From Candidatus Hadarchaeales archaeon (GTDB taxonomy: Archaea > Hadarchaeota > Hadarchaeia > Hadarchaeales > Hadarchaeaceae), in NCBI GenBank assembly GCA_038851075.1, contig JAWCLG010000002.1, positions 38,818-102,817 of the forward strand: DNA of 64,000 nt, written 5' to 3'. Shown one piece after another: positions 9,825-54,431 of the stretch (positions are counted from its first letter, which is position 1; each line of letters opens with the position of its first letter). The position numbers were made by a program, and so were the translations under genes. The notes beneath the pieces are model-generated. The model was given only the letters and a program-made list of their open reading frames with translations. It searched no databases and had not been told where the DNA came from.

Positions 9825-10607
9825 ATGATAACTCCTGTAAAAGGCTCACCGGCCGCGATTCTGAGGGTCGGAAAAGAGAGAATTCTCGCGGTTGCTGATT
9901 TGCACCTTGGCATTGAAAGCTGGCTCTCGAGAGATGGCATTTCGATTCCAAGCCAATCCCCAAAAATCAGGGCACGGCTTCTTGAACTCATAGATGAGCG
10001 TTCCCCTGATAGACTCATTATAATTGGGGACCTGAAACACGGTATTCCTGTATCGAGCTGGCAGGAATGGAGAGAGCTACCGGAGCTTTTGGAGGAACTG
10101 AAAAAACACGTTAAAGTTGAGGTCGTCAAGGGAAACCACGACGGGGGAATAGAGGAGATGCTTCCAAGCGGCGTGATAATCCACGATGCCCATGGAACCA
10201 TTGTGGGAAAAAGAGTAGGTCTGATGCATGGACACACTTGGCCTTCTCCATCCATGCTGAAAACCTCTGTTATTCTGCTCGGGCACATCCATCCATCGGT
10301 AGAATTCAGAGATAAAATGGGCGGGCGCGCAACCGCTCCAGTTTGGTTAAGATGCACAATGAACCCAGAGAAGATGCCTAAAAAAATTGAAAAACATGCC
10401 GGGAAAAAACTGCCCAAGTTGATAGTTCTCCCGGCTTTCAGCGATCTTGTGGGATATGCCCCGGTGAACAGGGAAATGCCGGGCGAGCTGATAGGTCCAC
10501 TTTTCAGGTCGGGAGTGGTCAACCTATCCGATGCTGAGGTCTACATGCTAGACGGCACATTTGTCGGAAAGGTCAACGATATGAAAAAGCGGAATCAATT
10601 CCGCTAG
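9825..10607 (+). CDS. Calcineurin-like metallophosphoesterase (COG1407-type)
   Basis: Motifs DLHLG, GDLKHG, GNHD and GHIH. Confidence 0.85.
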   Translation: MITPVKGSPAAILRVGKERILAVADLHLGIESWLSRDGISIPSQSPKIRARLLELIDERSPDRLIIIGDLKHGIPVSSWQEWRELPELLEELKKHVKVEVVKGNHDGGIEEMLPSGVIIHDAHGTIVGKRVGLMHGHTWPSPSMLKTSVILLGHIHPSVEFRDKMGGRATAPVWLRCTMNPEKMPKKIEKHAGKKLPKLIVLPAFSDLVGYAPVNREMPGELIGPLFRSGVVNLSDAEVYMLDGTFVGKVNDMKKRNQFR

Positions 10608-15962: not shown

Positions 15963-17150
15963 TCAGGTCTTTCTTCCCTCAAGCAGATTCTCAAGCTCTT
16001 TCTCCAGCCACGCCACTGGCGCTTCCTGTATACCGATCTTTTTCTTCCCTTTAGAGCGCGCCTCCTTCACCTCAACAAGTCCGAGTCCCTCCATTCTTTT
16101 TAAATACTCCCAGAACTGGCTCTTCTCTCGTGGCTGCTCTCCGTATTCTTCGCATGCCGCACGATATGTTTTGTCTAGGTCTTCCCTTAACGTGTACGCC
16201 TTACCGGAAGATCTGAGTCTCCTGCACAGAGAGAGCAGAAGTATCTTTTCGTGGGGTAACAGCTCGCGCAAAACCTCGCGCTTGATAACCGGATAAACCT
16301 CGGCCTTTGCCTCCCTGACGTGCTCCGGATTGACCGAACTCTCTAACTTTCCATCTGCGATGAGCCCTGCCCTCCACAACAGCTCGAGCGCAAATCTAGC
16401 ATCTCCAGTTGAAGATGCGATGTCGGCTATAAGATCCACAGACTCCTCCTCTACGGCCCCGGGTTTGAATGCCTCGTGGATTCTCTGCTGAAGTATGTCT
16501 TTAAGCTGCTCGGCAGTGTACCTGTTAAGCTCAAGCACGTTATGCATAAACGTGCTCTGTGTCGGGAGGTCAAGCGATTTGAGAAACTCCCTGTCCTTAG
16601 CAACAGCTATGATACTTATTCTGTTAGGCTGGCCTTCATCCTCATACATCCTAGTCAGCGAGTACATCAGGTCGGGACCCTCCATGCGGACGTAATAGTC
16701 TATTTCATCAAGGCAAAGGGTGAGGTATGCATCGTGCGTCCTCATGTAGGTTGAGATCAGATCTATCAGTTTTTCCGGTGACAGCCCATGATGAGGCCAT
16801 TTTGGATTGTAATGATGATGTATTTTGGATATGATCGAAAAGTAGCTCTTGTCCTTTCTGCAGTTTATGTGGAGATAGCTCAGATTCATTCCTCTCCCCT
16901 TCGCCGTAGCCTCCAGATCGGCGCCAAACCTTCCCGCTATGGCAGTCTTTCCTACCCCAACGCTTCCTGTGATTAAAACCCGCTGGCTCATCCTGTTCTC
17001 CAGGAGAGGTCTAAAAACTCTGATTAACCATCTAAACTCCTCATCTCTGTGCACCAAAACCTGAGGGACGTAGTCTGGAGAGAGTTTGCTCGCGTCCCTG
17101 AAAACTGACGGCCTTTCCAGTTCCTCCTCGAAGAGATTCCTCATTTGCAC
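15963..17150 (-). CDS. orc1: Orc1/Cdc6 replication initiator (AAA+ plus winged helix), paralog A
   Basis: Walker A GSVGVGKTA, a DEID Walker B-like box, and a C-terminal winged helix. 395 aa. Confidence 0.9.
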   Translation of the reverse strand: MQMRNLFEEELERPSVFRDASKLSPDYVPQVLVHRDEEFRWLIRVFRPLLENRMSQRVLITGSVGVGKTAIAGRFGADLEATAKGRGMNLSYLHINCRKDKSYFSIISKIHHHYNPKWPHHGLSPEKLIDLISTYMRTHDAYLTLCLDEIDYYVRMEGPDLMYSLTRMYEDEGQPNRISIIAVAKDREFLKSLDLPTQSTFMHNVLELNRYTAEQLKDILQQRIHEAFKPGAVEEESVDLIADIASSTGDARFALELLWRAGLIADGKLESSVNPEHVREAKAEVYPVIKREVLRELLPHEKILLLSLCRRLRSSGKAYTLREDLDKTYRAACEEYGEQPREKSQFWEYLKRMEGLGLVEVKEARSKGKKKIGIQEAPVAWLEKELENLLEGRKT

Positions 17151-19820: not shown

Positions 19821-21214
19821 AATCTCTCCTCCAGAATGGCCGAAACCGAATCGATAAACTTGTTCATATCATCCTCTGTATGAAGTTCTGTTGCGCAGAC
19901 AAGTGATGTCTCTCCAAGCTCAGGGAACTCTCTCTTAAGCGGTTTACCTCCATGAACTCCCCTCATCAGAAGCTCCGAATTCATCTTTTCAATGCCGATC
20001 TCCTTTGAAACAATTTTCATTGTGAACTCATTGAAGTGCGGCGATTCGAATACGGGAGCAACAACGCCGCTTATTCTTCCAAGTCTCTTCATCAAGAATT
20101 TTGCATTGGAGGCGCAGATTTCTGCCACATCCCTGAGACCTCTAGGACCCATTGATGCGAGGTATATCGCGGCGGCTATTGCACAAAGCGTTTCATTCGA
20201 GCATATGTTGGATGTCGCTCTCTCTCGCCTTATGTGCTGTTCCCTTGTCTGAAGCGCCATTACAAATCCTCTGGTCTTTCCATCAACCGTGGTCGTCATT
20301 CCAGAAATTCTTCCGGGCAATGACCTTATCATCTTCTCCTCTCCCCTGCACGCGAAAAGGCCAAGCGCGGGGCCTCCAAAGCTCACCGGATTGCCAAGCG
20401 GCTGTCCCTCTCCAACAACTATGTCCGCGCCGTACTCGCCCGGTGGTTTCAGGAGTCCAAGCGAGATTGGATTGACCCCAACCACGAACATCGCCCCAGC
20501 CTCATGCGCCATTCGCTCTATTTCGTCCACCTGAACTTCAAGGAATCCGAGATAAGCGGGGTTCTCTATGTATACTCCCGCGGTGTTTTTGTCCAGTTTT
20601 CTCTTAAGGTCTTCCAAATCCACATTCCCGGTTTTTTTATTGTGACCAACTCTGACTATCTCAAGGCCTGCCCCTGAGGAGTAATTTTTGAGCACAGAAA
20701 GACGATCACGTGACATTATATCGGGTACCAGGAATCTTTCCCTTTCGGTAACGCGGGCGCACATCAGGGCTGCTTCTCCAAGGGCCGTTGCCCAATCATA
20801 CATAGACGCATTTGCCACATCCAATCCCACAAGCTCACATATCATGCTCTGGTACTCGAAGAGAGCCTGCAGGACACCTTGGCTGACCTCCGCCTGGTAA
20901 GGTGTGTAGGAAGTTAGGAACTCTGCCCTTGAAACAAGAGCTTTAACGTGCGCGGGAACGTAGTGGGGCCAGACACCGCCGCCGAGAAAAACTGGAAATT
21001 TGGTGAAGGGGACGTTTTTTGAGAGAATCTCCGTAACATGCCTCCTAACCTCCTGCTCCGACATTCTGGGCGGAAGACTGAGCGGACGCTTTAGTCTGAC
21101 CTCTTCTGGGATATCTGAAAAAAGATCTTCTACGCTGTTCACTCCTATATCGACAAGCATCTCTTCTCTAATCCTCTTGAAGCTGGGGATATAGTGGTGG
21201 CTCATCTTCTGCAC
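19817..21214 (-). CDS. gcvPA: Glycine dehydrogenase (decarboxylating) subunit 1
   Basis: 465 aa N-terminal P-protein subunit. Stop and start overlap with gcvPB, indicating an operon. Confidence 0.9.
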   Translation of the reverse strand: MQKMSHHYIPSFKRIREEMLVDIGVNSVEDLFSDIPEEVRLKRPLSLPPRMSEQEVRRHVTEILSKNVPFTKFPVFLGGGVWPHYVPAHVKALVSRAEFLTSYTPYQAEVSQGVLQALFEYQSMICELVGLDVANASMYDWATALGEAALMCARVTERERFLVPDIMSRDRLSVLKNYSSGAGLEIVRVGHNKKTGNVDLEDLKRKLDKNTAGVYIENPAYLGFLEVQVDEIERMAHEAGAMFVVGVNPISLGLLKPPGEYGADIVVGEGQPLGNPVSFGGPALGLFACRGEEKMIRSLPGRISGMTTTVDGKTRGFVMALQTREQHIRRERATSNICSNETLCAIAAAIYLASMGPRGLRDVAEICASNAKFLMKRLGRISGVVAPVFESPHFNEFTMKIVSKEIGIEKMNSELLMRGVHGGKPLKREFPELGETSLVCATELHTEDDMNKFIDSVSAILEERL

Positions 21215-30334: not shown

Positions 30335-30736
30335 CTACTGAACCGACATTTTTCTGCGTCCCCTAGCTTTCCACTGGAGGACCCTGTCCTTCCACTTTTC
30401 AAATTTCTCTGTTTCAAACGAGGGCCCACCCCATTTTAAAATAAAATCTAAAAGACGAAAAAGATCTTCTTTTCTCCTTAACTCCAATCTATAAAGCCCG
30501 CCGCGCGTTACCACTTTACCCGCACCCAAAATTTTTCTAGCGGTTTCCACTGGATAGATCTTCTTAGAGTCTGCGTAAAAGACCGGATTGATGTAGCCGT
30601 ATTTTATTTCTCCTTTTTTAGTTTTTTTTGTTATATTTATTTTATTTACTGTATAAACCCCTTTAAACTCAAGAAATGCTATAAGCCATCCTATATCATA
30701 CTCTTTTCCTTTCATTTTATCTAATATATTTATCAT
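30335..30736 (-). CDS. Hypothetical 133 aa protein in a low-GC islet; possible single-motif LAGLIDADG-like endonuclease; ORB cores lie inside it
   Basis: DIGWLIAFLEFKG loosely resembles a LAGLIDADG motif. The ORF spans two ORB cores and sits in an AT-rich origin-like region, so it may be non-coding. Confidence 0.3.
   Translation of the reverse strand: MINILDKMKGKEYDIGWLIAFLEFKGVYTVNKINITKKTKKGEIKYGYINPVFYADSKKIYPVETARKILGAGKVVTRGGLYRLELRRKEDLFRLLDFILKWGGPSFETEKFEKWKDRVLQWKARGRRKMSVQ
30368..30378 (-). promoter_or_regulatory. Origin recognition box (ORB) core with G-string, minus orientation
   Basis: The minus strand reads CTCCAGTGGAAAGCTAGGGGA, which matches the archaeal ORB consensus TCCAGTGGAAA plus a GGGG element. 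Confidence 0.6.
30544..30554 (-). promoter_or_regulatory. ORB core, minus orientation
   Basis: The minus strand reads TCCAGTGGAAACCGCTAG. Confidence 0.55.
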
Positions 30737-30762
30737 AACTATTTATTAATAATAGATAATTA

Positions 30763-30782
30763 TTCCAGTGGAAACTAAGGGG
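30763..30782 (+). promoter_or_regulatory. ORB with G-string, plus orientation, inverted relative to the two upstream ORBs
   Basis: TTCCAGTGGAAACTAAGGGG. A very AT-rich stretch (about 30560-30760 and 30800-30900) lies between the inverted ORBs, consistent with a duplex unwinding element. Confidence 0.6.
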
Positions 30783-30975
30783 TGGCCGTCAAGTGCGGGG
30801 AAAAAATTGTTATGTTTTTTTCTTAAAATAAAAAATAAATAGTTTAGAAAACCGAAAAATGGTAATTAAATGTTTGATAACGTCCAAATTGGTAAAATAA
30901 AAAACATGAAAATCAAGGCCAGTCCGGCGACCCCCCTCCCCAAAGTTGGCTTAAGGCAAACTAAACAAACAAAGT

Positions 30976-31812
30976 TTGGGTAGGGAAGTGTACTACCAAA
31001 GAATTGACGTAAAAAACGCCGTTTGTGGATATTCGACGTCTAGTAAGAGCTATGGGGTACGAGAGGGGGCTTTTTTTAATGCTAGAAAAAAGACATTTCA
31101 GAGGTACACTGAAACGATAGATGGGAAAAAACCAGTGGAGCTTACCCCATCAGAGGTTTCCAAGGCAGCCGAGGCAGGGGCAATAGCATTTTACTGTTCG
31201 TACTGGCTATACGACTGTAACGACTTTAGAGAACCGACCGGTAGAGATCTCGTTTGGGTTATCCGAATAGAGAAAGGGGACTTGGAGTTCGCGAAAAAGT
31301 TGACGAGAGCAGCCGCAGAGGCATTGTGGGAAGCAGGGGCGGAGCCTTTTGTAAAGTATTCTGGAGACCTAGGATTCGACATTATATTGCCTCTAGAAAG
31401 CATACCGTTCGAAGTCTGGCATGGAAATATAGACGCACTGGATGACCTTCAGGGTGAGCTTTCCGATGTCATAGTCAGCAGTATCCGCTCACGGCTAGGG
31501 CTGGTTGTAGAGGGAGACAGACACTCGTTTAAAATAAAAGAGGATGAAAAAACCTCCCTCCTCTCCGAACTCCGGGTGAAGCGAGGCCTTTTGCTTGCGC
31601 CGATGAGCATAAACCCGGAGACAGGGCTGGTTTCTGTCCCGGTGGATCCTAGGGAGCTAGATAATTTTACAATCTTTGACGCGAGCCCGTCTAAAGTCAT
31701 AGGCAAAATATGGAGATTCGGTTCTGGCCCGAGTTATGGTCTAATCAAATACGCGAAGCTTGGTCAAGTTCGATCTTTGGAGGATAATCAGTCAGAGGAG
31801 CAGGCGTTTTAG
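30976..31812 (+). CDS. PriS (AEP primase small subunit) homolog with divergent catalytic motifs
   Basis: EVYYQR matches the PriS YYRR motif and REGAFFNARKKTFQRY matches REFSF...RY. The C-terminal SINPETGLVSVPVD...LDNFTIFD matches the PRIM1-like SIHPKTGRISVPID...FDPF. Motif I reads LVWVIRIE in place of LVFDID. Motif II reads YSGDLGFD in place of YSGRRGVH. 278 aa. Confidence 0.7.
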   Translation: MGREVYYQRIDVKNAVCGYSTSSKSYGVREGAFFNARKKTFQRYTETIDGKKPVELTPSEVSKAAEAGAIAFYCSYWLYDCNDFREPTGRDLVWVIRIEKGDLEFAKKLTRAAAEALWEAGAEPFVKYSGDLGFDIILPLESIPFEVWHGNIDALDDLQGELSDVIVSSIRSRLGLVVEGDRHSFKIKEDEKTSLLSELRVKRGLLLAPMSINPETGLVSVPVDPRELDNFTIFDASPSKVIGKIWRFGSGPSYGLIKYAKLGQVRSLEDNQSEEQAF

Positions 31813-38480: not shown

Positions 38481-39788
38481 ATGAACCCTAGGGAAATGAT
38501 GGAGAAAACATTCGCTCTTCTGAAGGAGCATCACGAATGGTTCAAAAGGTCTATACCCCTGATCGCGAGCGAGAATGTTACTAGCCCAGCTGTCAGGGAG
38601 GCCATGATATGCGACTTTCAGCACAGATATGCGGAGGGATGGCCAACCGAGAGAGTCTATGCAGGCTGCAGGTACATTGATCAGGTTGAGATTCTCACAA
38701 TGGATCTAGCAAAAAACCTTTTTGGTGCTGAGCACGCAAACGTCCAGCCGATATCGGGAGTCGTTGCAAATCTGGCCATGTACACGGCTTTGACCAAGCC
38801 CGGTGATATTTTATTGTGTCTGTCAATACCATGCGGCGGACACATCAGCATGGGGAAGGAGCAGATGGGTGGCACAGCCGGGGCGGTTCACGGTTTGAGG
38901 ATAGAATACTGGCCTTTCGATGAAAAACGCATGAACATAGATGTTGACGCGGCAGCGAAAAAACTGCGGGAAGTAAAACCGAAGCTGGCACTTTTTGGTG
39001 GAAGCGTGTTCCTGTTTCCCCACCCCCTCAGGGAGCTCATTGATGTGGCAAAGGAAGTGGGAGCGTATGTGGGGTACGATGCGGCACACGTTTCCGGGCT
39101 CATAGCCGGCGGGCAGTTTCAGCATCCGATTCGTGAGGGTGTTGACATAATGACATGCAGCACACACAAGACCCTTCCAGGGCCACAGCGTGGAATGATA
39201 TTGTGCAAAAGGGAACTGGCCGATGCCGTTAACCGTGCGGTTTTCCCAGGAGTTGTCAGTAATCATCACCTCCATTCGATGGCCGCCCTGGCGGTGGCAC
39301 TGGCCGAAATGATGGAATTTGGCAGGGATTATGCGGCACAGATAGTTAAAAATTCCAGAGCCTTAGGAAAGGAAATGTTCGATCTAGGATTTGATGTTCT
39401 CTGCCCGGACTTCGGGTTCACGAGCTCTCACACAATCGTTGTGAACGTTTTGAAGTACGGTGACGGAGGGGAAATAGAAAGGAGACTGGAGGAGGCGAAT
39501 ATCATACTAAACAGAAACCTTCTTCCGTGGGACATAAGAGAGGGTAGAAACTTCAGAAAACCAGGGGGGATAAGGCTGGGCGTCTCCGAGGTAACAAGAT
39601 TAGGGATGAAAGAGGCTGAGATGAGAGAAATAGCAGAGTTCATAAAGAGAGTAGTTATAGATGGAGAGAGTCCAAGCCGGATATCTCAAGAAATTTCAGA
39701 GTTCAGAAAGGATTACCAGAAGATTCATTATTGTTTTGATTCAGCTGCGGATGCTTACGAATATATCGAACTCAGAAAAAAATTTTAA
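38481..39788 (+). CDS. glyA: Serine hydroxymethyltransferase
   Basis: TCSTHKTLPGPQ matches the SHMT PLP-lysine motif. 435 aa. Confidence 0.9.
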   Translation: MNPREMMEKTFALLKEHHEWFKRSIPLIASENVTSPAVREAMICDFQHRYAEGWPTERVYAGCRYIDQVEILTMDLAKNLFGAEHANVQPISGVVANLAMYTALTKPGDILLCLSIPCGGHISMGKEQMGGTAGAVHGLRIEYWPFDEKRMNIDVDAAAKKLREVKPKLALFGGSVFLFPHPLRELIDVAKEVGAYVGYDAAHVSGLIAGGQFQHPIREGVDIMTCSTHKTLPGPQRGMILCKRELADAVNRAVFPGVVSNHHLHSMAALAVALAEMMEFGRDYAAQIVKNSRALGKEMFDLGFDVLCPDFGFTSSHTIVVNVLKYGDGGEIERRLEEANIILNRNLLPWDIREGRNFRKPGGIRLGVSEVTRLGMKEAEMREIAEFIKRVVIDGESPSRISQEISEFRKDYQKIHYCFDSAADAYEYIELRKKF

Positions 39789-39829
39789 ATTTTAAATACA
39801 CTCGCGGGGGGCAAAGTTTCCAGACTTAG

Positions 39830-39865
39830 TTTTCCACTGATTTCCACTGATTCCACTGGAAAAAG
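39830..39865 (+). repeat. Tandem ORB-like repeats (TTTCCACTGA x2, then TTCCACTGGAAAAAG) upstream of mcm
   Basis: Three 10-bp-phased direct repeats. The third completes the palindromic mini-ORB core TTCCACTGGAA. The surrounding 39790-40210 region is AT-rich. Confidence 0.5.
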
Positions 39866-40211
39866 AAAGAAAAAGGTAAGTTTTAAGAAAAAGAGCGTTT
39901 TTCTAGCCGATAAAAAAAGAACTAAAAATAAGCTAGATTCGTCAGATGCTGGAGTTTTCCAGTTACCACTCCCTAAAAATGACAAAAAAACGGTGTTTTA
40001 TAGTTTTATACGGTCTGGCAGCCGGAGGTTTTTGGAATGAAGCCCGAGATATCAAGAGTTACCTGCTATACCGATGTTGAAAACGGTGTATATTTTTATT
40101 TGTTCAATAAAGTTAAAGAAGAAAATATTTCACTTGTCATGGCTAATGAAGTAAAAAGTTTTTACAGAACTCCTTTTAAGCACATCTGGAATATCCTTTC
40201 TGGCAGTTGGT

Positions 40212-42233
40212 TTGGAGGCTGGGCGATTGGTTGGCAGTACAGTTAAAGAGAGGCTAGAGGAATTCATCCGCCGTAAGGATTTCCTGAAAGAAACCAAAAA
40301 GAGGACCGCGTCCGGACATAAGTCGGTAGTGGTTTCTTTCTCGGAAATTTTGGATTTCGATAAAGATCTGGCAAACGGGCTTTTGGATTCTCCTTCAGAT
40401 ATACTGGACTGGGCTGATAAAAAACTTGAGGAGATCACCGGCATTCCGAACATGCACCTCCGGGTGTATGGTCTGCCAGAAACAGTGGAGATAAGAAATA
40501 TACGCGCAGACCACGTTGGGAAGTTCATTCAGGTTGACGGTATACTTACAAAGGCAGGAGAAGTAAAACCGGAGGCAAGGGAGGCCGTTTTCAAGTGCAG
40601 GTTCTGCGGTGAGGAAAATAGGGTGATACAGGCAGGCGAGTTCTTCAGGGAGCCGCTTTCATGTGAGAATCCGAACTGCAGGAGAAAGGGTGCTTTTGAA
40701 CTCGTTATAGAGAGCACAGTATTCAGAGACTGGCAGAGCATTTCTGTGCAGGAACCACCAGAGAAGCTTAGGGGAGGAAGAATCCCGCAGAAGTTGGACG
40801 GTATACTCAGAGACGACTTCGTTGATAGAGCAGTCCCAGGAAACCATGTCACCGTAACAGGTGTTCTAAAGGTTTTCCATGAGAGGCAGAAGAGAGAGCG
40901 CAGAACCACATTTAGGAAAATACTGTTTGTCAATCACATAGATGTGCGGCAGAAAGGAGTGGAGGAAACTGAGCTGACCCCTGAGGATGAGAAGAAGATA
41001 AGCGAACTTGCTAAGGATCCATGGCTCAGGAACAAAATAATTCAGTCAATAGCGCCTGCGATTCACGGCCATGAGGTCATAAAAGAAGCAGTTGCATTGC
41101 AGTTATTCGGCTGTAATCCAGTAGAACTCCAGGATGGAACTAGAATAAGGGGTGATGTTCACATTTTGTTATGCGGCGATCCGGGAACTGCAAAGAGCCA
41201 GATTCTTAAGTGGGTTTCAAACGTTGCCCCCCGTGGACTTTATACATCTGGAATGAAAACCACGGCCGCTGGAATCACTGCAGCGGCTGTTCGAGATGAG
41301 ATAGGAGGCGGGTGGGCGCTTGAGGCGGGAGCCCTCGTGATAGCGGATGGGGGTATTGCGTGCGTAGATGAGTTTGAGAAAATGGATGCGCAGGAGTCCT
41401 CGGCGATCTTGGAGTCTATGGAGCAGCAGACAGTTAGCATAGCCAAGGCTGGTATAGTGGCCACGCTGAACACCCGCACTGCGGTCCTCGCCGCGACAAA
41501 TCCCAAGTATGGGAGATTCGAGAGAAACATACCACCTCCCAAACAGCTTGCGATAGAGCCAGTTCTTCTCTCTAGGTTCGACCTGATACTTTTGCTTAAA
41601 GACGAGCCAAGACCTGACCTCGATCACTCAATAGCACAGCACGTTCTTCAGCTTCACTCTTCACCAAAAAAGGTCACCAAGGCACCGTTTGATGTGGATT
41701 TTCTGAGAAAAATAGTGATATATTCAAGAAAGTATCTTGACCCTAAGATACAGGACAAAGAGGTGATGAAGGCAATAGAGGACTTTTTCGTGGAGTGGAG
41801 AAAAGTAGTTTCTCAGGGAGCCCCGCTTCCGATAACCGTCAGGCAACTGGAATCAATAATCCGGCTCGCAAAGTGCAATGCTAGGATGAGGTTGAGCGAC
41901 AGAGTAACAGTTGAGGACGCAAACAAGGCAGTGGCGCTAATAAAAACCAGTCTAAGTGAGGCAGGAATAGATACGGAGGCAAACGTCGTTGACATAGATT
42001 TAATAATGACGGGAATTCCAAAGTCACAGAGGGATAAGCGCCAGAGGATAATGGACATCATAGGACAGCTCGAGGAACAGTATGGAGGTGCGGCCCCGAT
42101 ATCCAAGGTAAAGGACCTTGCCTCATCGGAGGGAATATCAGAAAATTTTGTGGAGCGGATGATTGAGGAAGAAAAGAAACGTGGATATCTGTACTCTCCG
42201 ACTCCGGAGACCGTAAGCAGGGCGGTGAAGTGA
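40212..42233 (+). CDS. mcm: MCM replicative helicase
   Basis: C4 zinc finger CRFCGEE...CENPNCRR, Walker A GDPGTAKSQ, Walker B DEFEKM, arginine finger SRFDL. TTG start. Confidence 0.95.
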   Translation: MEAGRLVGSTVKERLEEFIRRKDFLKETKKRTASGHKSVVVSFSEILDFDKDLANGLLDSPSDILDWADKKLEEITGIPNMHLRVYGLPETVEIRNIRADHVGKFIQVDGILTKAGEVKPEAREAVFKCRFCGEENRVIQAGEFFREPLSCENPNCRRKGAFELVIESTVFRDWQSISVQEPPEKLRGGRIPQKLDGILRDDFVDRAVPGNHVTVTGVLKVFHERQKRERRTTFRKILFVNHIDVRQKGVEETELTPEDEKKISELAKDPWLRNKIIQSIAPAIHGHEVIKEAVALQLFGCNPVELQDGTRIRGDVHILLCGDPGTAKSQILKWVSNVAPRGLYTSGMKTTAAGITAAAVRDEIGGGWALEAGALVIADGGIACVDEFEKMDAQESSAILESMEQQTVSIAKAGIVATLNTRTAVLAATNPKYGRFERNIPPPKQLAIEPVLLSRFDLILLLKDEPRPDLDHSIAQHVLQLHSSPKKVTKAPFDVDFLRKIVIYSRKYLDPKIQDKEVMKAIEDFFVEWRKVVSQGAPLPITVRQLESIIRLAKCNARMRLSDRVTVEDANKAVALIKTSLSEAGIDTEANVVDIDLIMTGIPKSQRDKRQRIMDIIGQLEEQYGGAAPISKVKDLASSEGISENFVERMIEEEKKRGYLYSPTPETVSRAVK

Positions 42234-42775
42234 TGCGGAAGAGCGTCATGTTTGGAGAAGAGATGGAAGAAGTTAAGCTCGTTGATAGGACGTTAGGACC
42301 GTTTTCTGCCGGAGATGAGGTTGAGCTCTGGAAATGGGATGCAGAAGTGCTCGAAAAGCATTCTCTGGTGGTTCCTTCAAAGTTATTTTCAGTTCAGGAT
42401 ATGCGCAAGTTAGCACTGCTTCAGGAGAGAAGTCAGAGCCCGATTACTCTCCCAGCAGACTTTTACAGCATCGCATTAGACAGCTTTAGGGACATTCTAT
42501 CTTCTGAGGGCAGGAAGGCGGCCGATGAGATGAAATCCGCATTGATGTCTCTTGTTGAGATAAGGATACCAAAACTGGTTTTACTTTCCGTGTCTTCCGG
42601 TTCGGGTTTTAATCTTCCACCGGAGGAGATGGTGCTTATCAACAGGATTTCGGAGGAAGTTGATGAATGGAGCAGAAAATTTTTGAATGAGCTGAAAAAA
42701 ATCGGGGAGGAGGTAGAAAAAGGTGGTTCAGGAGGGACTGTTCCACGAAATTCTACGGACGAGGCAGATATTTAA
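42230..42775 (+). CDS. Hypothetical protein between mcm and orc1; possible GINS subunit (Gins51-like)
   Basis: 181 aa, acidic and helical. The stop/start overlap with mcm suggests translational coupling. The GINS assignment rests on size and context only. Confidence 0.3.
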   Translation: MMRKSVMFGEEMEEVKLVDRTLGPFSAGDEVELWKWDAEVLEKHSLVVPSKLFSVQDMRKLALLQERSQSPITLPADFYSIALDSFRDILSSEGRKAADEMKSALMSLVEIRIPKLVLLSVSSGSGFNLPPEEMVLINRISEEVDEWSRKFLNELKKIGEEVEKGGSGGTVPRNSTDEADI

Positions 42776-43997
42776 AAATAGGGAGTATCTCAGACCGAGC
42801 TACACGCCGGATGAACTCCCACATAGAGAAGATCAGATCAAACAGCTCGCCAGAATACTCGCCGCACCACTGCGTGGAGAAACTCCATCCAACATATTCA
42901 TATATGGAAAACCCGGCACCGGAAAGACGGCATGTGTCAACTATGTCGGAAAGGAACTCGAAAAAGTCAGCGATAATGCACCTTTTGGGGTGGAGGTTGT
43001 TTACCTTAACTGCGAGATCATCAACACACCGTATCGCATTCTCGCTAGGCTGTCAGACCACTTCATAGATAAGTTAAAAAGATCCGAGGAAGGCGGAGAT
43101 CAGGCGGTTATTCCGGAGAAGGCGCCTAAAACGGGATGGCCGATGGATGAAGTTTACAGGATTTTTTTCAACGCTTTGGACTCCAGAAAACAGCTTGGGG
43201 TGGTAATTCTCGACGAGGTAGATAAACTGGTTAAGAAGAGCGGAGACGATATACTTTACATCCTCACGAGGATGAATTCAGACCTTAAGTCATCCAAAGT
43301 CGCTGTGGTTGGAATTTCAAATGACACCAACTTTATGGAGTACCTTGATCCAAGGGTTAGAAGTAGCCTTGGACAAGAGGAAATAGTTTTTCCGGCCTAC
43401 AACGCGCTGCAGCTGGCAGATATACTGCGAAAAAGAGCGGAGATGAGCTTTGTTGAAGGGGCTGTTGGGATTGGTGTGATAGACCTCTGTGCTGCTCACG
43501 CGGCCAGAGAACACGGCGATGCTAGGAGAGCGCTTGATCTGCTGAGGGTTTCAGGCGAGATAGCAGAGTCAAAAAACGCAGAGGCAGTCACTACTGAGCA
43601 TGTGATGCTGGCGCACTTGCAGATAGAGCGGGACAAAATGGTCGAGGTGATAAAAACCCTTCCAGCACAATCAAAGCTCGTCCTTTACAGTATAGTTTAC
43701 CTCATGGAAAGGACACCACGTAGGATAGTGAGCGGCGATGTTTACAGCGTATATCGAGAAAAGTGTATCAGCACTGGAAATTCGGTGCTCACCCCGAGAA
43801 GAGTGAGCGACCTTATATCTGAGTTGGATACACTTGGCATAATCAGCGCAACAATAATCAACAAAGGCAGATACGGCAGAACAAAGGAGATAAAGCTGAA
43901 TGTTCATCCCACCCAGGTGATGGCGGCGATCATCGAAGACCTACATGGAGTGAGCGCTAGCACAACAAGCGTTGCGGGGACCAGTTTTGGTTTTTAG
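42723..43997 (+). CDS. orc1: Orc1/Cdc6 replication initiator, paralog B
   Basis: Walker A GKPGTGKTA, Walker B ILDEVD, C-terminal winged helix. The GTG start overlaps the end of the upstream ORF. Confidence 0.9.
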   Translation: MVQEGLFHEILRTRQIFKNREYLRPSYTPDELPHREDQIKQLARILAAPLRGETPSNIFIYGKPGTGKTACVNYVGKELEKVSDNAPFGVEVVYLNCEIINTPYRILARLSDHFIDKLKRSEEGGDQAVIPEKAPKTGWPMDEVYRIFFNALDSRKQLGVVILDEVDKLVKKSGDDILYILTRMNSDLKSSKVAVVGISNDTNFMEYLDPRVRSSLGQEEIVFPAYNALQLADILRKRAEMSFVEGAVGIGVIDLCAAHAAREHGDARRALDLLRVSGEIAESKNAEAVTTEHVMLAHLQIERDKMVEVIKTLPAQSKLVLYSIVYLMERTPRRIVSGDVYSVYREKCISTGNSVLTPRRVSDLISELDTLGIISATIINKGRYGRTKEIKLNVHPTQVMAAIIEDLHGVSASTTSVAGTSFGF

Positions 43998-45539
43998 GTG
44001 GGACATGTGGAGGAAAACATTCTTATTCACAGGTTTATGGACCTAGGAGTACAGCTGAGCGAGGGGGCCCTCAAGTATATAATGAGCCAGAGCGACCCTG
44101 AGGCGACGGCATATCTTGTGATATCAAAGTTATCAAAGATGGAAAAAAGACCATTTTTAATAACAACTGATGCGATATCCGCAATTTTAATGGAATCAAT
44201 GGAGGAAACCCAAGTATTACATGAGGATCAGACTAGACCATCTGAGATAATTAAAAAATCCGTTCACACAAAGTTCAGGCCCGTTGCAGCGGAGTACGAG
44301 TCTAAAGTCAGTGTGAGGAGAGATATAACTGGAAAAAGCTACAGTGAAGGTGACATAAGGGACTTTTGGAGCCTTTTTTCAGATAGGTACGATAGGGTGA
44401 GCAGGCTCCTCCGTAACAGGGTGGAGCTCAGGGAAGCTGTTCCAATGGAAACCCTATCAAGTATGGGTGAAAGGGAAAAAGTAAGTGTAATAGGGATGGT
44501 CGCGGATAGACGCGAATCTTCTGCTGGAAATATAATAATAGACCTGGAGGATCCAACCGGCAGGGCCTTGGCTCTGGTTTTCAAGGGGAAGAAGGACCTT
44601 GTTTCTAAGGCTATGGATGTGGTAACTGACGAGGTCATAGGTGTTGTAGGATCACTTAGACCAGGTGATAGAATCCCGCGCATTTTCGTTACCGACATAG
44701 TTTGGCCGGATCTCCCCGTCAAACACGAGCTTGGCAGATCAGAGGACCCAGTCTGCGCGGCACTTATATCCGACCTACATGTCGGAAGCGAAATGTTTCT
44801 TGAGGATGTGTTCATGAAGTTCATGAAATGGCTTAATGAAGGGGCGGATGGGAAAGCTGAGGCGGAGCTGGCCGGAAAGGTGAAGTACCTGGTTGTTGCG
44901 GGCGACATTGTGGACGGAATAGGAGTTTATCCCGGCCAGGAGGGTGAGCTTCTTGTCGATGATATATTCAAACAGTATGAGATAGCGGCAAAACTTTTGG
45001 CTGAAGTACCGGACTACATAACTGTTATTGTCACACCGGGTAATCACGATGCAGTGCGTCCGTCCGAACCGCAGCCGGCGATACCGAAGGATATTGCGGG
45101 TGATTTTTATGAGAGAGGGTTCTTGATGGCAGGAAATCCGGTTTTGGCCAACATCCATGGCGTGAATTTCATAGTATATCATGGAAGGAGCGTTGATGAT
45201 ATGGTAGGCGCCGTTCCGGGTCTTGACAGAAAGGATTCGGTAAAGCCGTTTGTAAAGCTTCTTCAGAAGAGGCACCTCGCACCGATTTATGGCGGAAGAA
45301 CTGCGATCTCCCCTGAGAGAGCGGACTATATGGTTATCGATGAAGTGCCGGACGTCTTGCACTGCGGCCATGTCCACGTTAATGGGTACTCTAAGTACAG
45401 GGAAGTTTCGATCGTAAACTCTGGAACTTTTCAGTCAAAAACTCTATACATGCAAAAACTTGGGGTTGAGCCGACCCCTGGGATGGTACCGATATTTGAT
45501 CTGCAGACCCACCAGGTGAGGGTGGTTCGATTTGCTTAG
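43998..45539 (+). CDS. polD1: DNA polymerase II (PolD) small subunit DP1
   Basis: OB-fold followed by calcineurin-like phosphoesterase motifs (DLHVG, GDIVD, GNHD, HCGHVH). Confidence 0.9.
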   Translation: MGHVEENILIHRFMDLGVQLSEGALKYIMSQSDPEATAYLVISKLSKMEKRPFLITTDAISAILMESMEETQVLHEDQTRPSEIIKKSVHTKFRPVAAEYESKVSVRRDITGKSYSEGDIRDFWSLFSDRYDRVSRLLRNRVELREAVPMETLSSMGEREKVSVIGMVADRRESSAGNIIIDLEDPTGRALALVFKGKKDLVSKAMDVVTDEVIGVVGSLRPGDRIPRIFVTDIVWPDLPVKHELGRSEDPVCAALISDLHVGSEMFLEDVFMKFMKWLNEGADGKAEAELAGKVKYLVVAGDIVDGIGVYPGQEGELLVDDIFKQYEIAAKLLAEVPDYITVIVTPGNHDAVRPSEPQPAIPKDIAGDFYERGFLMAGNPVLANIHGVNFIVYHGRSVDDMVGAVPGLDRKDSVKPFVKLLQKRHLAPIYGGRTAISPERADYMVIDEVPDVLHCGHVHVNGYSKYREVSIVNSGTFQSKTLYMQKLGVEPTPGMVPIFDLQTHQVRVVRFA

Positions 45540-46335
45540 ATGCAGAGCGCTCGACGGAATTTCAGGCGTTATAATTGACCTTGATGGAGTCGTGTGGGTG
45601 GGTAGAACAACAGTGGCTGGGGTCCAAGAGGCCATTCAGGCCATAAGAAGGATGGGAAAGCGAATAGTTTTCACGACAAATAACTCCTCAAAAAGCAGGA
45701 AGGAGTACGTAAAGATGCTCAGGAGGTCAGGGGGGGATGCAGAGGAGCATGAGGTCTTAACTTCAGGATATGCTGCTGCGGAGTACCTTAGGCGAAAAAA
45801 AGACGCAGTCCGGGCCCATGTAGTTGGCGAGAGGGGACTTAGAGAGGAACTCGTGCGCGCCGGAATAAAGATTCTCCCAGAAGAAAAATCGGAGGATGCC
45901 ACCCATCTGGTTGTTGGCTTAGACAGAACGATCAACTACAGAAAAATATGGTTCGCCATGAAGTCTCTCATGTCAGGAGCGGAGTTCGTGGCAACAAACA
46001 CAGATCCAACTTACCCAACTGAACTCGGGCTTACACCAGGGGCTGGGGCGATTGTCGGTGCAATCTCAGGATGCTCGGGCAGAAATCCAGATGTAGTGCT
46101 CGGAAAACCATATCCTTACATCATGAAAATGGCTCTTGAATTGCTGGGCACAGGCGCAGGTCAGACCGCGATAATTGGCGACAGGCTGGAGGTTGATGTA
46201 AAGGCAGGAAAATTGTGTGGCATAAGGACAATACTAGTTTTGAGTGGGGTTACAAAAAGAGAAGATCTGAGAAAAGTGGAGAGGGATATGAGGCCAGATT
46301 TTGTTTTTAACAGTCTTTCAGAGGTGGTGTCATGA
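45532..46335 (+). CDS. HAD-superfamily hydrolase, subfamily IIA (NagD-like)
   Basis: IIDLDGVVW (motif I), TNNS, GKP, IGDRLEVD. Confidence 0.8.
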   Translation: MLRCRALDGISGVIIDLDGVVWVGRTTVAGVQEAIQAIRRMGKRIVFTTNNSSKSRKEYVKMLRRSGGDAEEHEVLTSGYAAAEYLRRKKDAVRAHVVGERGLREELVRAGIKILPEEKSEDATHLVVGLDRTINYRKIWFAMKSLMSGAEFVATNTDPTYPTELGLTPGAGAIVGAISGCSGRNPDVVLGKPYPYIMKMALELLGTGAGQTAIIGDRLEVDVKAGKLCGIRTILVLSGVTKREDLRKVERDMRPDFVFNSLSEVVS

Positions 46336-49300
46336 GCGGAGGTAACATGTTGGAGTACTTTAGGTCTATGAACGAGCAGATAGACGGCATATATGAAATT
46401 GCCATAAAGGCGAGAGCTAAGGGGATAGATCCAGAACTTGAACCAGAAATACCGCGCGCCGGGGATCTCGCCTCTAGAGTTGAGCAACTTGTTGGTCCCA
46501 AAGGAGTTGCCGAGGTTATTCGAGACATGGAGAAGATCATGGGCAGAGAAGAGATGGCGCTGAAGATTGCGGAAATGATAATAGACGGCAGATTTGGAAG
46601 GTTAGATGAGGAAAAGGCGGCAGAGCAGGCGTTGAGGACGGTACTCGCGATTCTTACAGAGGGCGTGGTTATAGCCCCTCTTGAGGGCATAACTGGAGTT
46701 AGGATAAGAAAGAACTATGACAACACCAGATATCTCTCAATCTCTTTTGCAAGCCCAATTAGAGCGGCCGGAGGCACAGCCGCTGCGCTTTCCGTGCTGG
46801 CCGGAGATTTTGTCAGAAGGAAGCTGTTTCTGAGCCACTACAAACCAACCGTGGAAGAGGTGGAGAGGTTCGTTGAGGAGGTTGAGATATACGGCTTAGT
46901 GGCCCATGAGCAGTACAAGCCTCACGCTGACCACATACGTCTTGCAATACAGAACATCCCGGTTGAGATCACAGGGGAACCAACCGAGAGAGATGTCACG
47001 GTAACTGCGTTCAGGAACATCGAGCGCATCGGGCATAATATGGTAAGGGGAGGTGCGGTACTTGCACTGACCGAGGGAGTTCTCCAGAAGGCTTCAAAGA
47101 TAATGAAGTATGTGGAGAAACTTGGCATAGATGGATGGGCATGGCTTTCGAACGTTGTTCCTAAGACCACACCTGAGGAATCTGAAACTATTTTCCCGAA
47201 GGGAGATAGATATCTGGGAGAGGTAATAGCGGGAAGACCCATACTATCCCATCCAGGAACCGAGGGGCAGATGGGTAGAAGGGGAGGTTTTAGGCTCAGG
47301 TACGGACATTCGAGAAATACGGGAATCGCGGCGATCGGCATTCATCCTGCCACAATGATAATTTGCGATGACTTCATCGCGGTTGGTACGCAGTTGAAGG
47401 TCGAGCGTCCCGGAAAGGGCGGGGCCGTGACCCCAGTGGATTCCATAGAGGGACCGGTGGTAAAGCTTAAAGACGGCTCGGTTTTGCAGGTTTATTCAGA
47501 AGAGGAAGCGCTAAAAGTAAGGGATAGTGTTGCGGAAATACTCTGCCTAGGAGATATTCTTGTTGGATACGGGGAGTTCTTGGAGAACAATCATCCGTTG
47601 ATGCCGGCAGGTTATTGTGAGGAATGGTGGAGTCAGGAGGTTAAAAAGGCGCTATCGGGGAAGGAGAGAAGGGACCTAGAAAAATATATTGAAAAACCGT
47701 ATCCGAGACCTAGCTCTGATCTTGCCGTCAGAATTTCGGAAGAACTTGGAGTACCGCTTCACCCGGCTTACACTTATCCATACCACGACTTGGAGATAGA
47801 GGATCTCGTGAGTCTGGCAAGGTGGTTGGTCAAGGGGAGGCCGGAGTTTGACGGAGGGGTGCTGAGAAAACTGAGAATTCAGATCGAGGAGGTTCCTAAA
47901 CGAATTCTGGAAGAGCTATGCGTTCCCCACGGTGTTGATGGGAAAGATGTGGTTATTGAAGAGCATGCATATGCCCTGTGCAGGTCTCTCGGGTTGGTCT
48001 TCGGTGACTCACTTGTCATTGAGAGATTTGAGGGGGTCATGCGGTCCAGTTCAACCAAGGACATAATGGAGATAGTACAGGAACTCGCAGGTTTTCCGAT
48101 CAGAAAGAAGGCCCCGACAAGAATAGGTGCAAGGATGGGCAGACCGGAGAAGGCCAAGGAGAGGGAGATGAGCCCACCAGTCCATGCTCTTTTTCCAGTA
48201 GGTTTTAAGGGGGGATCCACCCGCAGCATAGCGAGAGCAGCGGAGTCTGATGACCTAGAGGTGGAGCTTGCGAACATGGTTTGCCCGAGCTGTGGCTGGA
48301 GCGGTTTTACGAGAAAATGTCAGAAGTGCGGTTCTAAGGCTGAGCCTGTAAGAGTATGCCAGAAATGCATGGCCCCTGTTGATGAAGATCGATGCCCAAT
48401 CTGCAACTCACGCGCGGAGTTCTTCATTAAAAGAAGAATTAAACTAAAAGCAATGCTTGAGTCAGCGCTGAAGAGACTTGATGAATATCCGGAGCTCGTT
48501 AAAGGAGTGCAGGGCATGACAAGCGACTGGAAAATTCCGGAGCCGCTTGAAAAGGGAATCCTGCGGGCAAAACACGGAGTTCAGGTATTCAAGGATGGAA
48601 CAGTTAGATTTGACGAGACAAATGTTCCGCTCACCCATTTCAAGCCAAAGGAGATTGGCGTCTCGGTGGAAAAGCTAAGAGATCTTGGATACACAGTCGA
48701 CTTTAACGGAAATCCGCTTGAGGCGGAAGATCAGGTGGTTGAGCTTAAGGTTCAGGATATTGTTATCTCGAGGGCATGTGCAGAATATCTGTTCAAAGCA
48801 TCTAGGTTCATTGACGAGCTTCTGGAAAAGGTATATGGTCTTGCCCCTTATTACAATGCTAAAAGACCGGAGGACCTTTTGGGGCACATAGTCCTCGGTC
48901 TGGCTCCCCACACATCGGTTGGAATAGCGGGGCGCATCATAGGTTTCGTCGATGCCAGCGTTGGATATGCGCATCCATTTTTCCACGCTGCGAAAAGGAG
49001 GGACGCGGACGGTGATGAAGATTGTGTAATGTTGCTTCTCGATGCTTTATTGAACTTTAGCAGACGCTTTCTGCCTTCAAAACGCGGTGGTCTAATGGAC
49101 GCGCCGCTTATCCTCAGCACTCGGATAAATCCGGCAGAAATAGATAAGCAGGCTCATAACATGGACATAATGAATTTTTACCCGCTTGAGTTCTATGAGG
49201 CAACTTTGCGCTATGCGAGACCTCAGGAGGTTTTTGCTCAGATGAAAACAGCAGGTAAAAAAATAGGTACAGAGGATGAGTACACCGGATTTGGCTACAC

Positions 49301-49757
49301 CCATGAGACTAACGATATTTCGGCAGGTCCGAAGTCAACTAGGTACATAAAGTTGACGACTATGGAGGAAAAGATTTCTGCCCAGCTGAGCCTGGCAAGG
49401 AAAATAAGGGCTGTTGATGAGAGAGATGTCGCAGAGCGGCTTATAAAGCACCACTTCATCCCAGACCTCAAAGGAAATTTGAGGACGTTTGCGACTCAAA
49501 AGTTCAGGTGTACATCATGCAATAATAGCCATCGCAGGATACCGCTCTCAGGAAAATGCACGAGGTGCGGAGGAAAACTCGTTCTTACTGTAACGAGAGG
49601 TGGGGTTGAAAAATACCTGCGTGTTGCCATGGACGTTGCCGATGACTACCATGTGAGTGAATACACAAAACAGAGGCTGAAGATGACAAAAAAGGACATA
49701 GAGTCGATGTTCGAAAGTGATGCCTCCAGACAGCTGAGTCTGGCAGATTTCCTGTAA
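46332..49757 (+). CDS. polD2: DNA polymerase II (PolD) large catalytic subunit DP2
   Basis: 1141 aa. Zinc fingers CPSCGW...CQKCGS...CQKC...CPICN. Conserved DP2 blocks. No intein. Confidence 0.95.
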   Translation: MSGGNMLEYFRSMNEQIDGIYEIAIKARAKGIDPELEPEIPRAGDLASRVEQLVGPKGVAEVIRDMEKIMGREEMALKIAEMIIDGRFGRLDEEKAAEQALRTVLAILTEGVVIAPLEGITGVRIRKNYDNTRYLSISFASPIRAAGGTAAALSVLAGDFVRRKLFLSHYKPTVEEVERFVEEVEIYGLVAHEQYKPHADHIRLAIQNIPVEITGEPTERDVTVTAFRNIERIGHNMVRGGAVLALTEGVLQKASKIMKYVEKLGIDGWAWLSNVVPKTTPEESETIFPKGDRYLGEVIAGRPILSHPGTEGQMGRRGGFRLRYGHSRNTGIAAIGIHPATMIICDDFIAVGTQLKVERPGKGGAVTPVDSIEGPVVKLKDGSVLQVYSEEEALKVRDSVAEILCLGDILVGYGEFLENNHPLMPAGYCEEWWSQEVKKALSGKERRDLEKYIEKPYPRPSSDLAVRISEELGVPLHPAYTYPYHDLEIEDLVSLARWLVKGRPEFDGGVLRKLRIQIEEVPKRILEELCVPHGVDGKDVVIEEHAYALCRSLGLVFGDSLVIERFEGVMRSSSTKDIMEIVQELAGFPIRKKAPTRIGARMGRPEKAKEREMSPPVHALFPVGFKGGSTRSIARAAESDDLEVELANMVCPSCGWSGFTRKCQKCGSKAEPVRVCQKCMAPVDEDRCPICNSRAEFFIKRRIKLKAMLESALKRLDEYPELVKGVQGMTSDWKIPEPLEKGILRAKHGVQVFKDGTVRFDETNVPLTHFKPKEIGVSVEKLRDLGYTVDFNGNPLEAEDQVVELKVQDIVISRACAEYLFKASRFIDELLEKVYGLAPYYNAKRPEDLLGHIVLGLAPHTSVGIAGRIIGFVDASVGYAHPFFHAAKRRDADGDEDCVMLLLDALLNFSRRFLPSKRGGLMDAPLILSTRINPAEIDKQAHNMDIMNFYPLEFYEATLRYARPQEVFAQMKTAGKKIGTEDEYTGFGYTHETNDISAGPKSTRYIKLTTMEEKISAQLSLARKIRAVDERDVAERLIKHHFIPDLKGNLRTFATQKFRCTSCNNSHRRIPLSGKCTRCGGKLVLTVTRGGVEKYLRVAMDVADDYHVSEYTKQRLKMTKKDIESMFESDASRQLSLADFL

Positions 49758-49766: not shown

Positions 49767-49790
49767 CATGGGAATAAGTTTTATTGGGTG

Positions 49791-49879
49791 CCGGGGTAGC
49801 GAAGCCAGGTAACGCGCCAGACTCGAGATCTGGTTCTCCTCTCGGAGAGCGGGGGTTCAAATCCCCTCCCCGGCGCCAT
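49791..49879 (+). tRNA. tRNA-Ser (anticodon CGA) with long variable arm and encoded CCA
   Basis: Acceptor GCCGGGG/CCCCGGC, anticodon stem CCAGA/TCTGG around loop CUCGAGA, variable arm TTCTCCTCTCGGAGAGC, T-arm GGGGGTTCAAATCCCCT. Confidence 0.8.
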
Positions 49880-54302: not shown

Positions 54303-54431
54303 GGGGCTGTGGTGTAGCTTGGTATCACGGCAGGCTCCAGTGGATGATGTGGGTCTTCTGACTGATGGATGATGACCCACTGGAGCCGAAGAGACCTGCA
54401 AACCCGGGTTCAAATCCTGGCAGCCCCACCA
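54303..54431 (+). tRNA. tRNA-Trp (anticodon CCA) with a 53-nt intron and encoded CCA
   Basis: Acceptor GGGGCTG/CAGCCCC. The anticodon stem GCAGG...CCTGC is interrupted after position 37. The T-arm is GGGTTCAAATCC. The intron spans about 54341-54393. Confidence 0.8.
54341..54393 (+). ncRNA. Box C/D sRNA-like element inside the tRNA-Trp intron
   Basis: Box C AUGAUGU (54344-54350), D' CUGA (54358-54365), box C' AUGAUGA (54369-54375). The guide CCCACUGGAGCC is complementary to the tRNA-Trp anticodon region. Confidence 0.6.

Follow-up and report, generated by a model that had tools for sequence, protein, structure and literature searches.

A replication gene string with a predicted Gins23, a mini-ORB array at its head and a candidate oriC 9 kb upstream in a Hadarchaeales archaeon

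A string of replication genes lies in the stretch of DNA analysed here (the window), 64,000 nucleotides from a Candidatus Hadarchaeales archaeon (assembly GCA_038851075.1, contig JAWCLG010000002.1, forward strand positions 38,818 to 102,817; coordinates below are those of the window). On the plus strand, glyA, encoding serine hydroxymethyltransferase (38481-39788; Pfam and NCBIfam), is followed by a spacer and then by mcm, which occupies 40227-42233 with the frame open from a TTG at 40212 (Pfam MCM, MCM_OB, MCM_lid and MCM_WH_arc; NCBIfam NF040949, 775 bits). Next come a small open reading frame (ORF) of 180 or 181 codons (starting at 42233 or 42230 and ending at 42775) and the initiator gene orc1/cdc6 (42723-43997; NF001625, 559.5 bits, exceeding the cut-off of 501). 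The string continues with the gene encoding the small DNA polymerase D (PolD) subunit, DP1 (43998-45539; Pfam), a gene for a HAD-IIA phosphatase of the phosphoglycolate-phosphatase type (45532-46335; TIGR01452, 202 bits; resembling the TK1734 family) and the gene for the large PolD subunit, DP2 (46332-49757; Pfam). A tRNA-Ser (49790-49878) is located directly after DP2. The glyA-mcm spacer contains an array of short repeats related to origin recognition boxes (ORBs), and a further group of ORBs is present at 30360-30785. The identity of the small ORF and the likely roles of the two groups of repeats are described here.

The genes are closely packed. The TTG at 40227 is probably the true start of mcm: it lies 8 nt past a GGAGG at 40214-40218, and the ATG annotated for a relative, locus L002, falls opposite it in the alignment (loci of relatives are denoted by L numbers). 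The TGA stop of mcm and the ATG of the small ORF overlap as TGATG, and the last ~17 codons of the ORF are within orc1, giving an overlap of 53 nt (42723-42775). The orc1 stop directly abuts the GTG start of DP1; DP1 and the phosphatase gene overlap by 8 nt, and the latter overlaps DP2 as ATGA. The same order, from mcm through the small ORF, orc1, DP1 and the phosphatase gene to DP2, is also present in L001-L004. The gene content and tight one-strand packing claimed in the original prediction, made from the letters of the window, are thus confirmed by the Pfam and NCBIfam calls and by the ORF junctions.

Profile and structure-model comparisons identify the product of the small ORF as a divergent Gins23. 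The NCBIfam Gins23 model NF053565 matches the 180-aa product with an E-value of 4.6e-11 over model positions 22-158 of 159. An exhaustive HMMER search with the ORF returned 35 relatives, 28 of which were used to build a family profile. This profile matched Gins23 of S. solfataricus (9moj_C; E 1.7e-20), Gins23 of T. kodakarensis (3anw_B; E 3.8e-14) and human PSF2 (E ~2e-12). Gins23 and PSF2 align over the full length, whereas the match to Gins51 (3anw_A) is confined to the A domain, with query residues 53-159 aligned to residues 2-122. The AlphaFold2 model of the protein (predicted local distance difference test score, pLDDT, 89) has strands in residues 2-48 and helices in residues 54-163. The domain order is therefore a beta-rich B domain at the N-terminus and a helical A domain at the C-terminus, the reverse of that in Gins51, Psf1 and Sld5. 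When the model was searched with Foldseek, 9moj_C was the best match (template modelling score 0.66), followed by PSF2 chains and 3anw_B. Identity to the solved Gins23 and PSF2 chains is 17-20%.

Gene context agrees across relatives. A Gins23 homologue sits between mcm and orc1 in L002, L003 and L004, and the homologue in L001 (143 aa, hhalign probability 99.3%) has ATGA overlaps on both sides. A stop/start overlap with the upstream mcm is seen in the window and in L001, L002, L003 and L004, and the two genes are kept together in all five of these Hadarchaeales loci. By homology, the protein would be expected to join Gins51 in the GINS tetramer and to act as an activator of the MCM helicase. 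Simpler searches returned little. A Pfam search gave nothing significant, an exact-sequence lookup using the NCBI version of Gins23 gave no match, and a word-index protein search found as its sole match a 100% identical 'hypothetical protein' of a Candidatus Hadarchaeales metagenome-assembled genome.

The ORF had been proposed as a GINS-like or otherwise uncharacterised replisome component. The first part of this proposal is borne out by the profile, fold and Foldseek matches. The second is not, since both Gins23 and its position next to mcm are textbook knowledge. In Crenarchaea and Thermococcales, too, mcm and gins23 are a known pair (Berthon et al. 2008, PMC2643942; for solved Gins23 structures, see 9MOJ chain C and 3ANW chain B), and the predicted protein shares with these solved chains the B-then-A order as well as significant fold and profile matches. 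Unlike the pairs described there, the Hadarchaeales gins23 lies downstream of mcm, overlaps orc1 and is divergent in sequence. Both mcm-gins23 and cdc6-dp1-dp2 clusters, the latter beside oriC, have been described for other archaea in a survey that did not include Hadarchaeota (PMC2643942). In Hadarchaeales, two such known modules, mcm-gins23 and orc1-dp1-dp2, are fused.

The C-terminal tail GDEADIQ was considered as a Gins23 functional motif ('DEADIQ') and rejected. It is an alternative frame of orc1 with low pLDDT, and its conservation is explained by that of the N-terminal TRQIFKN, which orc1 encodes in the overlapping frame. The end point of the tail hinges on a synonymous TTT/TTC choice in orc1. 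As a separate observation, a 4294-aa protein of the representative library (P0019) contains nine stretches resembling residues 21-74 of Gins23, in the B domain.

The spacer between glyA and mcm (39789-40211) is 423 bp long, with a GC content of ~0.355 compared to ~0.48 window-wide. The mini-ORB array is located at 39816-39861 on the plus strand. It consists of a degenerate copy, GTTTCCAGAC (39816-39825), two exact copies of TTTCCACTGA starting at 39831 and 39841, and finally TTCCACTGGAA, a palindrome, at 39851-39861. The first interval is 10 bp and the next 9 bp, and the half-sites are co-oriented; Tandem Repeats Finder reports a period of 10 with 2.9 copies. The palindromic unit, TTCCACTGGAA, carries the core TTTCCACTGGA(A/G), identical to that of P. 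furiosus ORB1-3 and mini-ORB. Oligonucleotides with this core, ATTTCCACTGGA(A/G), are bound by Cdc6/Orc1 in gel shifts (PMC1904270). The array, which relatives conserve, has the TTCC...GAA dyad of ORBs and mini-ORBs and is clustered in non-coding, AT-rich DNA. The AT-rich spacer of ~420 bp with 10-bp-phased repeats and a palindromic third copy was thus predicted correctly, and the repeats contain a true ORB core.

The 8-mer TTCCACTG occurs seven times in the window (both strands), against 2.3 +/- 1.5 in shuffled sequence, and none of 100 shuffles reached seven. Three of the copies are in the array and three at 30369-30773, so that six of the seven fall within two spacers. In the five loci that keep the glyA-mcm neighbourhood (the window, L002, L006, L003 and L023), no other block of the spacer is as well conserved as the array. 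In all five it begins ~30 nt past the glyA stop, and variants such as TTTCCTGTGGAAA preserve both the dyad and the 10-bp phasing. This conservation is seen though the MCM proteins are only 63% identical and the flanking spacer has diverged. The array is not present in L001 and L004, both of which keep the operon.

Immediately downstream of the array is an AT- and purine-rich tract (39862-39950), which is poorly conserved in sequence. No inverted partner of the array was found across this tract, every TTTCCA half-site of the array being on the plus strand, and no conserved G-string accompanies the array in the loci compared. On a scale of 100-200 bp, the mcm spacer is the second- to third-least stable duplex in the window; the DNA at 30577-30860 is clearly less stable. 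An RNA element or terminator at the array was considered and rejected (fold z = -0.28, no Rfam family, no terminator-like hairpin over the array). Three weak ORB-like matches also occur inside DP1 at 44440-44590, comprising GTTCCAATGGAAAC and two sites with 2 mismatches, and recall the Pyrococcus cluster in dp1. As neither L002 nor L003 conserves them, they were treated as probable chance matches and rejected as a real cluster.

A second conserved element of the spacer, motif 2, occupies plus-strand positions 39955-39974, ~95 bp downstream of the array. It is 20 nt long with the consensus TTTCGGTGACCTCTCTCCCC, reads TTTTCCAGTTACCACTCCCT here, and is followed by a TATA-like TTTTATAG at 39996-40003. 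Motif 2 is also found at 30922-30941, upstream of a gene encoding a protein like archaeo-eukaryotic primases (AEP; see below). In L023 it precedes both genes (9937-9956 and 20386-20405), and the two copies are identical. Taking these places together, the motif is followed by a TATA-like GCTTAAAAAG or TTTTATAG. It was seen nowhere else in the window or in the 13 fetched loci scanned, except for chance matches with 5 mismatches. It could be a regulatory site of replication genes or a site for a second Orc1 paralogue.

Scanning of the window for the ORB core revealed a candidate oriC at 30360-30785. Two long ORBs, A1 (CCCCTAGCTTTCCACTGGAG, 30360-30379) and the inverted A3 (TTCCAGTGGAAACTAAGGGGTGG, 30763-30785), are present there, with a further ORB, A2 (GTTTCCACTGGAT, 30543-30555), between them. 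The G-strings of A1 and A3 point outward, and the pair flanks the least stable DNA of the window, the minimum of duplex stability at 30577-30860 being ~5 standard deviations below the mean. Of the four TTCCA[C/G]TGGA sites found in the window, three fall within 30369-30773. Inverted ORBs around a duplex-unwinding element are thus found here and are absent at 39.8 kb. The long ORB CCCCTTnnTTTCCACTGGA is kept at the locus of tyrS and the AEP-like gene in L006, L020, L021 (Ca. Hadarchaeum yellowstonense), L022 and L023 (Hadesarchaea DG-33-1). In L022 the inverted ORBs are 77 bp apart around very AT-rich DNA, and a LAGLIDADG-like gene found at most of these loci is absent; judged by its letters, this layout is that of a textbook archaeal origin. 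Gene orientation diverges at the 30.5-kb locus in the window and in L020-L022. At 39.8 kb, where glyA and mcm are co-oriented, neither gene orientation nor nucleotide skew switches.

Nucleotide skew was analysed by regressing the per-gene GC skew and the GC skew at third codon positions (GC3 skew) on gene strand and on the side of a movable switch point. The strand term separates replication-linked skew from coding-strand skew. The best switch was at 31 kb, between gene midpoints at 30.54 and 31.39 kb. With this switch, the residual sum of squares for GC3 skew fell from 1.23 to 0.66, a fit as good being obtained in none of 1000 permutations. A switch at 40 kb gives a clearly worse fit (1.01). 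Genes between 31 and 39.8 kb share the strong leading-strand-type skew of those beyond 40 kb. The most likely main oriC is therefore the pair of inverted long ORBs at 30360-30785, which lies 9 kb upstream of the array. The earlier proposal of an origin-type element at the 5' end of the operon is rendered doubtful, as the ORB pair with its unwinding element, the phylum-wide conservation and the skew switch favour 30.36-30.79 kb instead.

These results are best accommodated, with a probability of about 0.6 in our estimate, by a replication operon that includes Gins23 and is headed by a secondary cluster of Orc1 sites, the main oriC being at 30360-30785. The array would be a group of mini-ORBs recognised by the Orc1/Cdc6 protein whose gene lies 2.9 kb downstream. 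With a phasing of 10 bp, its half-sites fall on the same helical face, an arrangement that would favour cooperative binding of Orc1. The array is regarded as a secondary cluster, and is probably not the main origin, because its sites run one way, it has no G-string or inverted partner, it is missing from L001 and L004 and it lies rightward of the skew switch. As it heads the very operon encoding Orc1, MCM, Gins23 and PolD, a feedback or architectural role is the most economical: by analogy, it would most likely act in feedback on operon expression or in organising Orc1 around oriC.

Several points weigh against this explanation. The NCBIfam Gins23 score of 42.8 bits is below the curated equivalog cut-off of 120, which is an annotation threshold and no biological criterion; it is because of this shortfall that the source genome labels the protein hypothetical. 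In the first two repeats the GGAA half of the dyad is incomplete, TTCCACTGA alone being retained, and single mini-ORBs are bound weakly by Pyrococcus Cdc6, clusters giving specificity (PMC1904270). The nearest TATA-like element is ~135 bp downstream of the array and the mcm-proximal one ~330 bp, distances that are large for a classical archaeal operator. The skew was calculated from naive ORF calls over 64 kb; it reports long-term fork direction and is blind to a rarely used origin. Finally, the AT-rich spacer with motif 2, as at the oriC locus, makes some origin function of the array possible.

The alternative that survives best is that the array and its AT-rich tract are themselves an origin at which Orc1 loads MCM, either a second active one 9 kb away or a dormant back-up. 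The ORB core is correct and clustered, the adjacent AT-rich DNA takes second to third place in the window for instability, and the combination of ORB, AT-rich tract and motif 2 is common to the 30.5-kb locus. The position at the head of an operon with orc1 mirrors the oriC-cdc6-dp1-dp2 order of Pyrococcus, and dormant origins are reported for Haloferax (PMC4595724). Against this, the sites are unidirectional, with no inverted partner over the AT tract and no conserved G-string, and there is no switch of gene strand at the array. The skew changes at ~31 kb, and genes at 31-39.8 kb are skewed like those right of 40 kb. Further, L001 and L004 keep the operon without the array, whereas the ORB pair at 30.5 kb is phylum-wide. 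A minor or dormant origin at the array is accordingly considered unlikely, at roughly one chance in five.

A related and equally tentative reading builds on the resemblance of the two loci. A module of one or more ORBs, an AT-rich tract, TTTCGGTGACCTCTCTCCCC and a TATA-like element would exist in two copies, one at oriC before the AEP-fold primase-like gene and the other before the mcm-gins23-orc1-polD operon. The two copies would couple licensing to replisome expression via Orc1, or else the second would be a dormant origin. Orc1 would then be both initiator and transcription factor, and the second Orc1 paralogue encoded at 15963-17150 would possibly recognise motif 2.

Less probable still is that the repeats bind a factor other than Orc1, for example a winged-helix regulator, or act as a roadblock or terminator insulating the operon from read-through out of the glyA amino-acid operon, their likeness to ORBs being coincidental. 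The constant start of the array ~30 nt after the glyA stop in five loci could be read in this way, as could the incomplete dyads of the first two copies and the second conserved motif and promoter-like elements, which mark the spacer as a regulatory region. It is countered by the 11-12-nt core, identical to that of experimentally bound Pyrococcus ORBs, and by the use of the same core in the inverted ORB pair at the skew switch of the same genome; the fold statistics and the lack of an intrinsic-terminator-like hairpin or Rfam family argue against the terminator form. That the array is a functionless chance feature of low complexity in an AT-rich spacer finds some favour in its shortness (~45 bp, 2.9 copies), and is effectively refuted by the shuffling result, by the confinement of six of the seven 8-mers to two spacers and, above all, by the conservation of the block beside diverged flanks.

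The preferred explanation, a secondary Orc1 cluster at the head of the operon and a main oriC at 30360-30785, resembles the situation in Pyrococcus and Thermococcus (Matsunaga et al. 2007, PMC1904270) in several respects. The TTTCCACTGGA core is the same, and inverted long ORBs surround AT-rich DNA. In Pyrococcus, a second ORB cluster, separated from oriC by cdc6, is bound by Cdc6 in vivo without initiating (PMC1904270); a predicted extra cluster lies near the initiator gene here as well. In both, orc1, dp1 and dp2 are co-oriented beside the origin. Unlike in Pyrococcus, mcm and gins23 precede orc1 in Hadarchaeales, the HAD phosphatase gene splits dp1 from dp2, and the ORB pair is 9 kb from the operon instead of directly upstream of orc1. 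The secondary cluster of Pyrococcus is inside dp1, whereas the Hadarchaeales one is intergenic, upstream of mcm, tandem and 10-bp phased. In Methanothermobacter thermautotrophicus, according to the summary given in PMC1904270, tandem arrays of 13-bp mini-ORBs are bound cooperatively by Cdc6-1. As there, short ORB-derived units are arranged head to tail here, and by analogy cooperative binding of the initiator would be expected. In comparison with what that summary describes, the Hadarchaeales array differs in having 3-4 abutting units with a 10-bp period and in lying outside the best origin candidate.

A more distant parallel is found in bacteria, where dnaA is autoregulated via DnaA boxes in its own promoter. 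In both cases, sites for the initiator lie upstream of the operon encoding it, although the proteins belong to different families and the organisms to different domains of life. Unlike those of the dnaA promoter, the Hadarchaeales sites are far from the predicted TATA elements, and regulation by the array is put forward as an analogy alone.

Several further features lie at or near the candidate oriC. Between the origin ORBs sits a nested LAGLIDADG-like gene (30335-30736, minus strand), and 30.3-30.9 kb was therefore rejected as a purely non-coding spacer. The gene is conserved in most of the loci compared, where it encodes 125-139 aa (L021, 9531-9950; L023, 9518-9904, inverted in the latter). 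ORB A1 encodes the C-terminal VLQWKxRG of its product. The gene resembles one of the homing-endonuclease type that has settled inside an origin. The AEP-like gene (30988-31812, plus strand) encodes a Hadarchaeota-wide 'hypothetical' protein with 140 homologues and no Pfam family. Its AlphaFold2 model (pLDDT 88) has an archaeo-eukaryotic primase fold, with LigD polymerase, Prim-PolC and PriS as best matches. A motif III-like LLLAPMSxNPETG is invariant, and no clear DxD motif was seen.

The second Orc1/Cdc6 paralogue (15963-17150, minus strand; NF001623, 304 bits, slightly below the cut-off) shows 25% identity to the Orc1 of the operon. It belongs to a string of minus-strand genes, with a tRNA-Pro just downstream. 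No ORB cluster adjoins it.

Closer to mcm, the spacer contains the conserved blocks AAAAGTTTTTACA, TTTTAAG and GGAGG, which look like a proximal promoter and a Shine-Dalgarno sequence. A 69-codon ORF or leader of uncertain status (40037-40246, plus strand) follows the distal promoter-like element, has an ATG and a GGAGG Shine-Dalgarno sequence and overlaps the mcm start. It is open in the window, L002 and L006, with the common patches ENIS and VKxFYKxxFK, and is weak or absent in L003. It has no family match, and the NCBI annotation of L020 does not list it. Possible identities are a small protein, a leader peptide and promoter DNA under conservation.

Within the operon, the phosphatase gene holds its position between DP1 and DP2 in L001-L004. 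This position hints at a link between PolD and the disposal of 2-phosphoglycolate from damaged DNA ends. Insertions of ~1.1 kb occur within mcm of L002/L020, L006 and L004, the one in L020 being annotated Intein_splicing and LAGLIDADG_3, and DP2 of L004 shows a 1.4-kb gap; mcm and DP2 of the window are intein-free. Further downstream, 54303-54428 (plus strand) is a 126-nt tRNA match by Rfam with none from ARAGORN, and is probably an intron-containing tRNA.

No paper on the replication origins of Hadarchaeota, an uncultured phylum, was found in literature searches. Current models of archaeal replication are left unchanged by the present findings; the parts are known elsewhere, and the arrangement and lineage alone are new. 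A protein annotated as hypothetical is now given the name Gins23, and Hadarchaeota appear to retain a GINS of the two-subunit type, as in Thermococcales. If the two-module reading were true, origin licensing would be tied to the expression of the replisome genes. The analysis provides a testable map of initiator sites that places a canonical candidate oriC at ~30.4-30.8 kb and, in front of the operon encoding the initiator itself, a secondary mini-ORB array.

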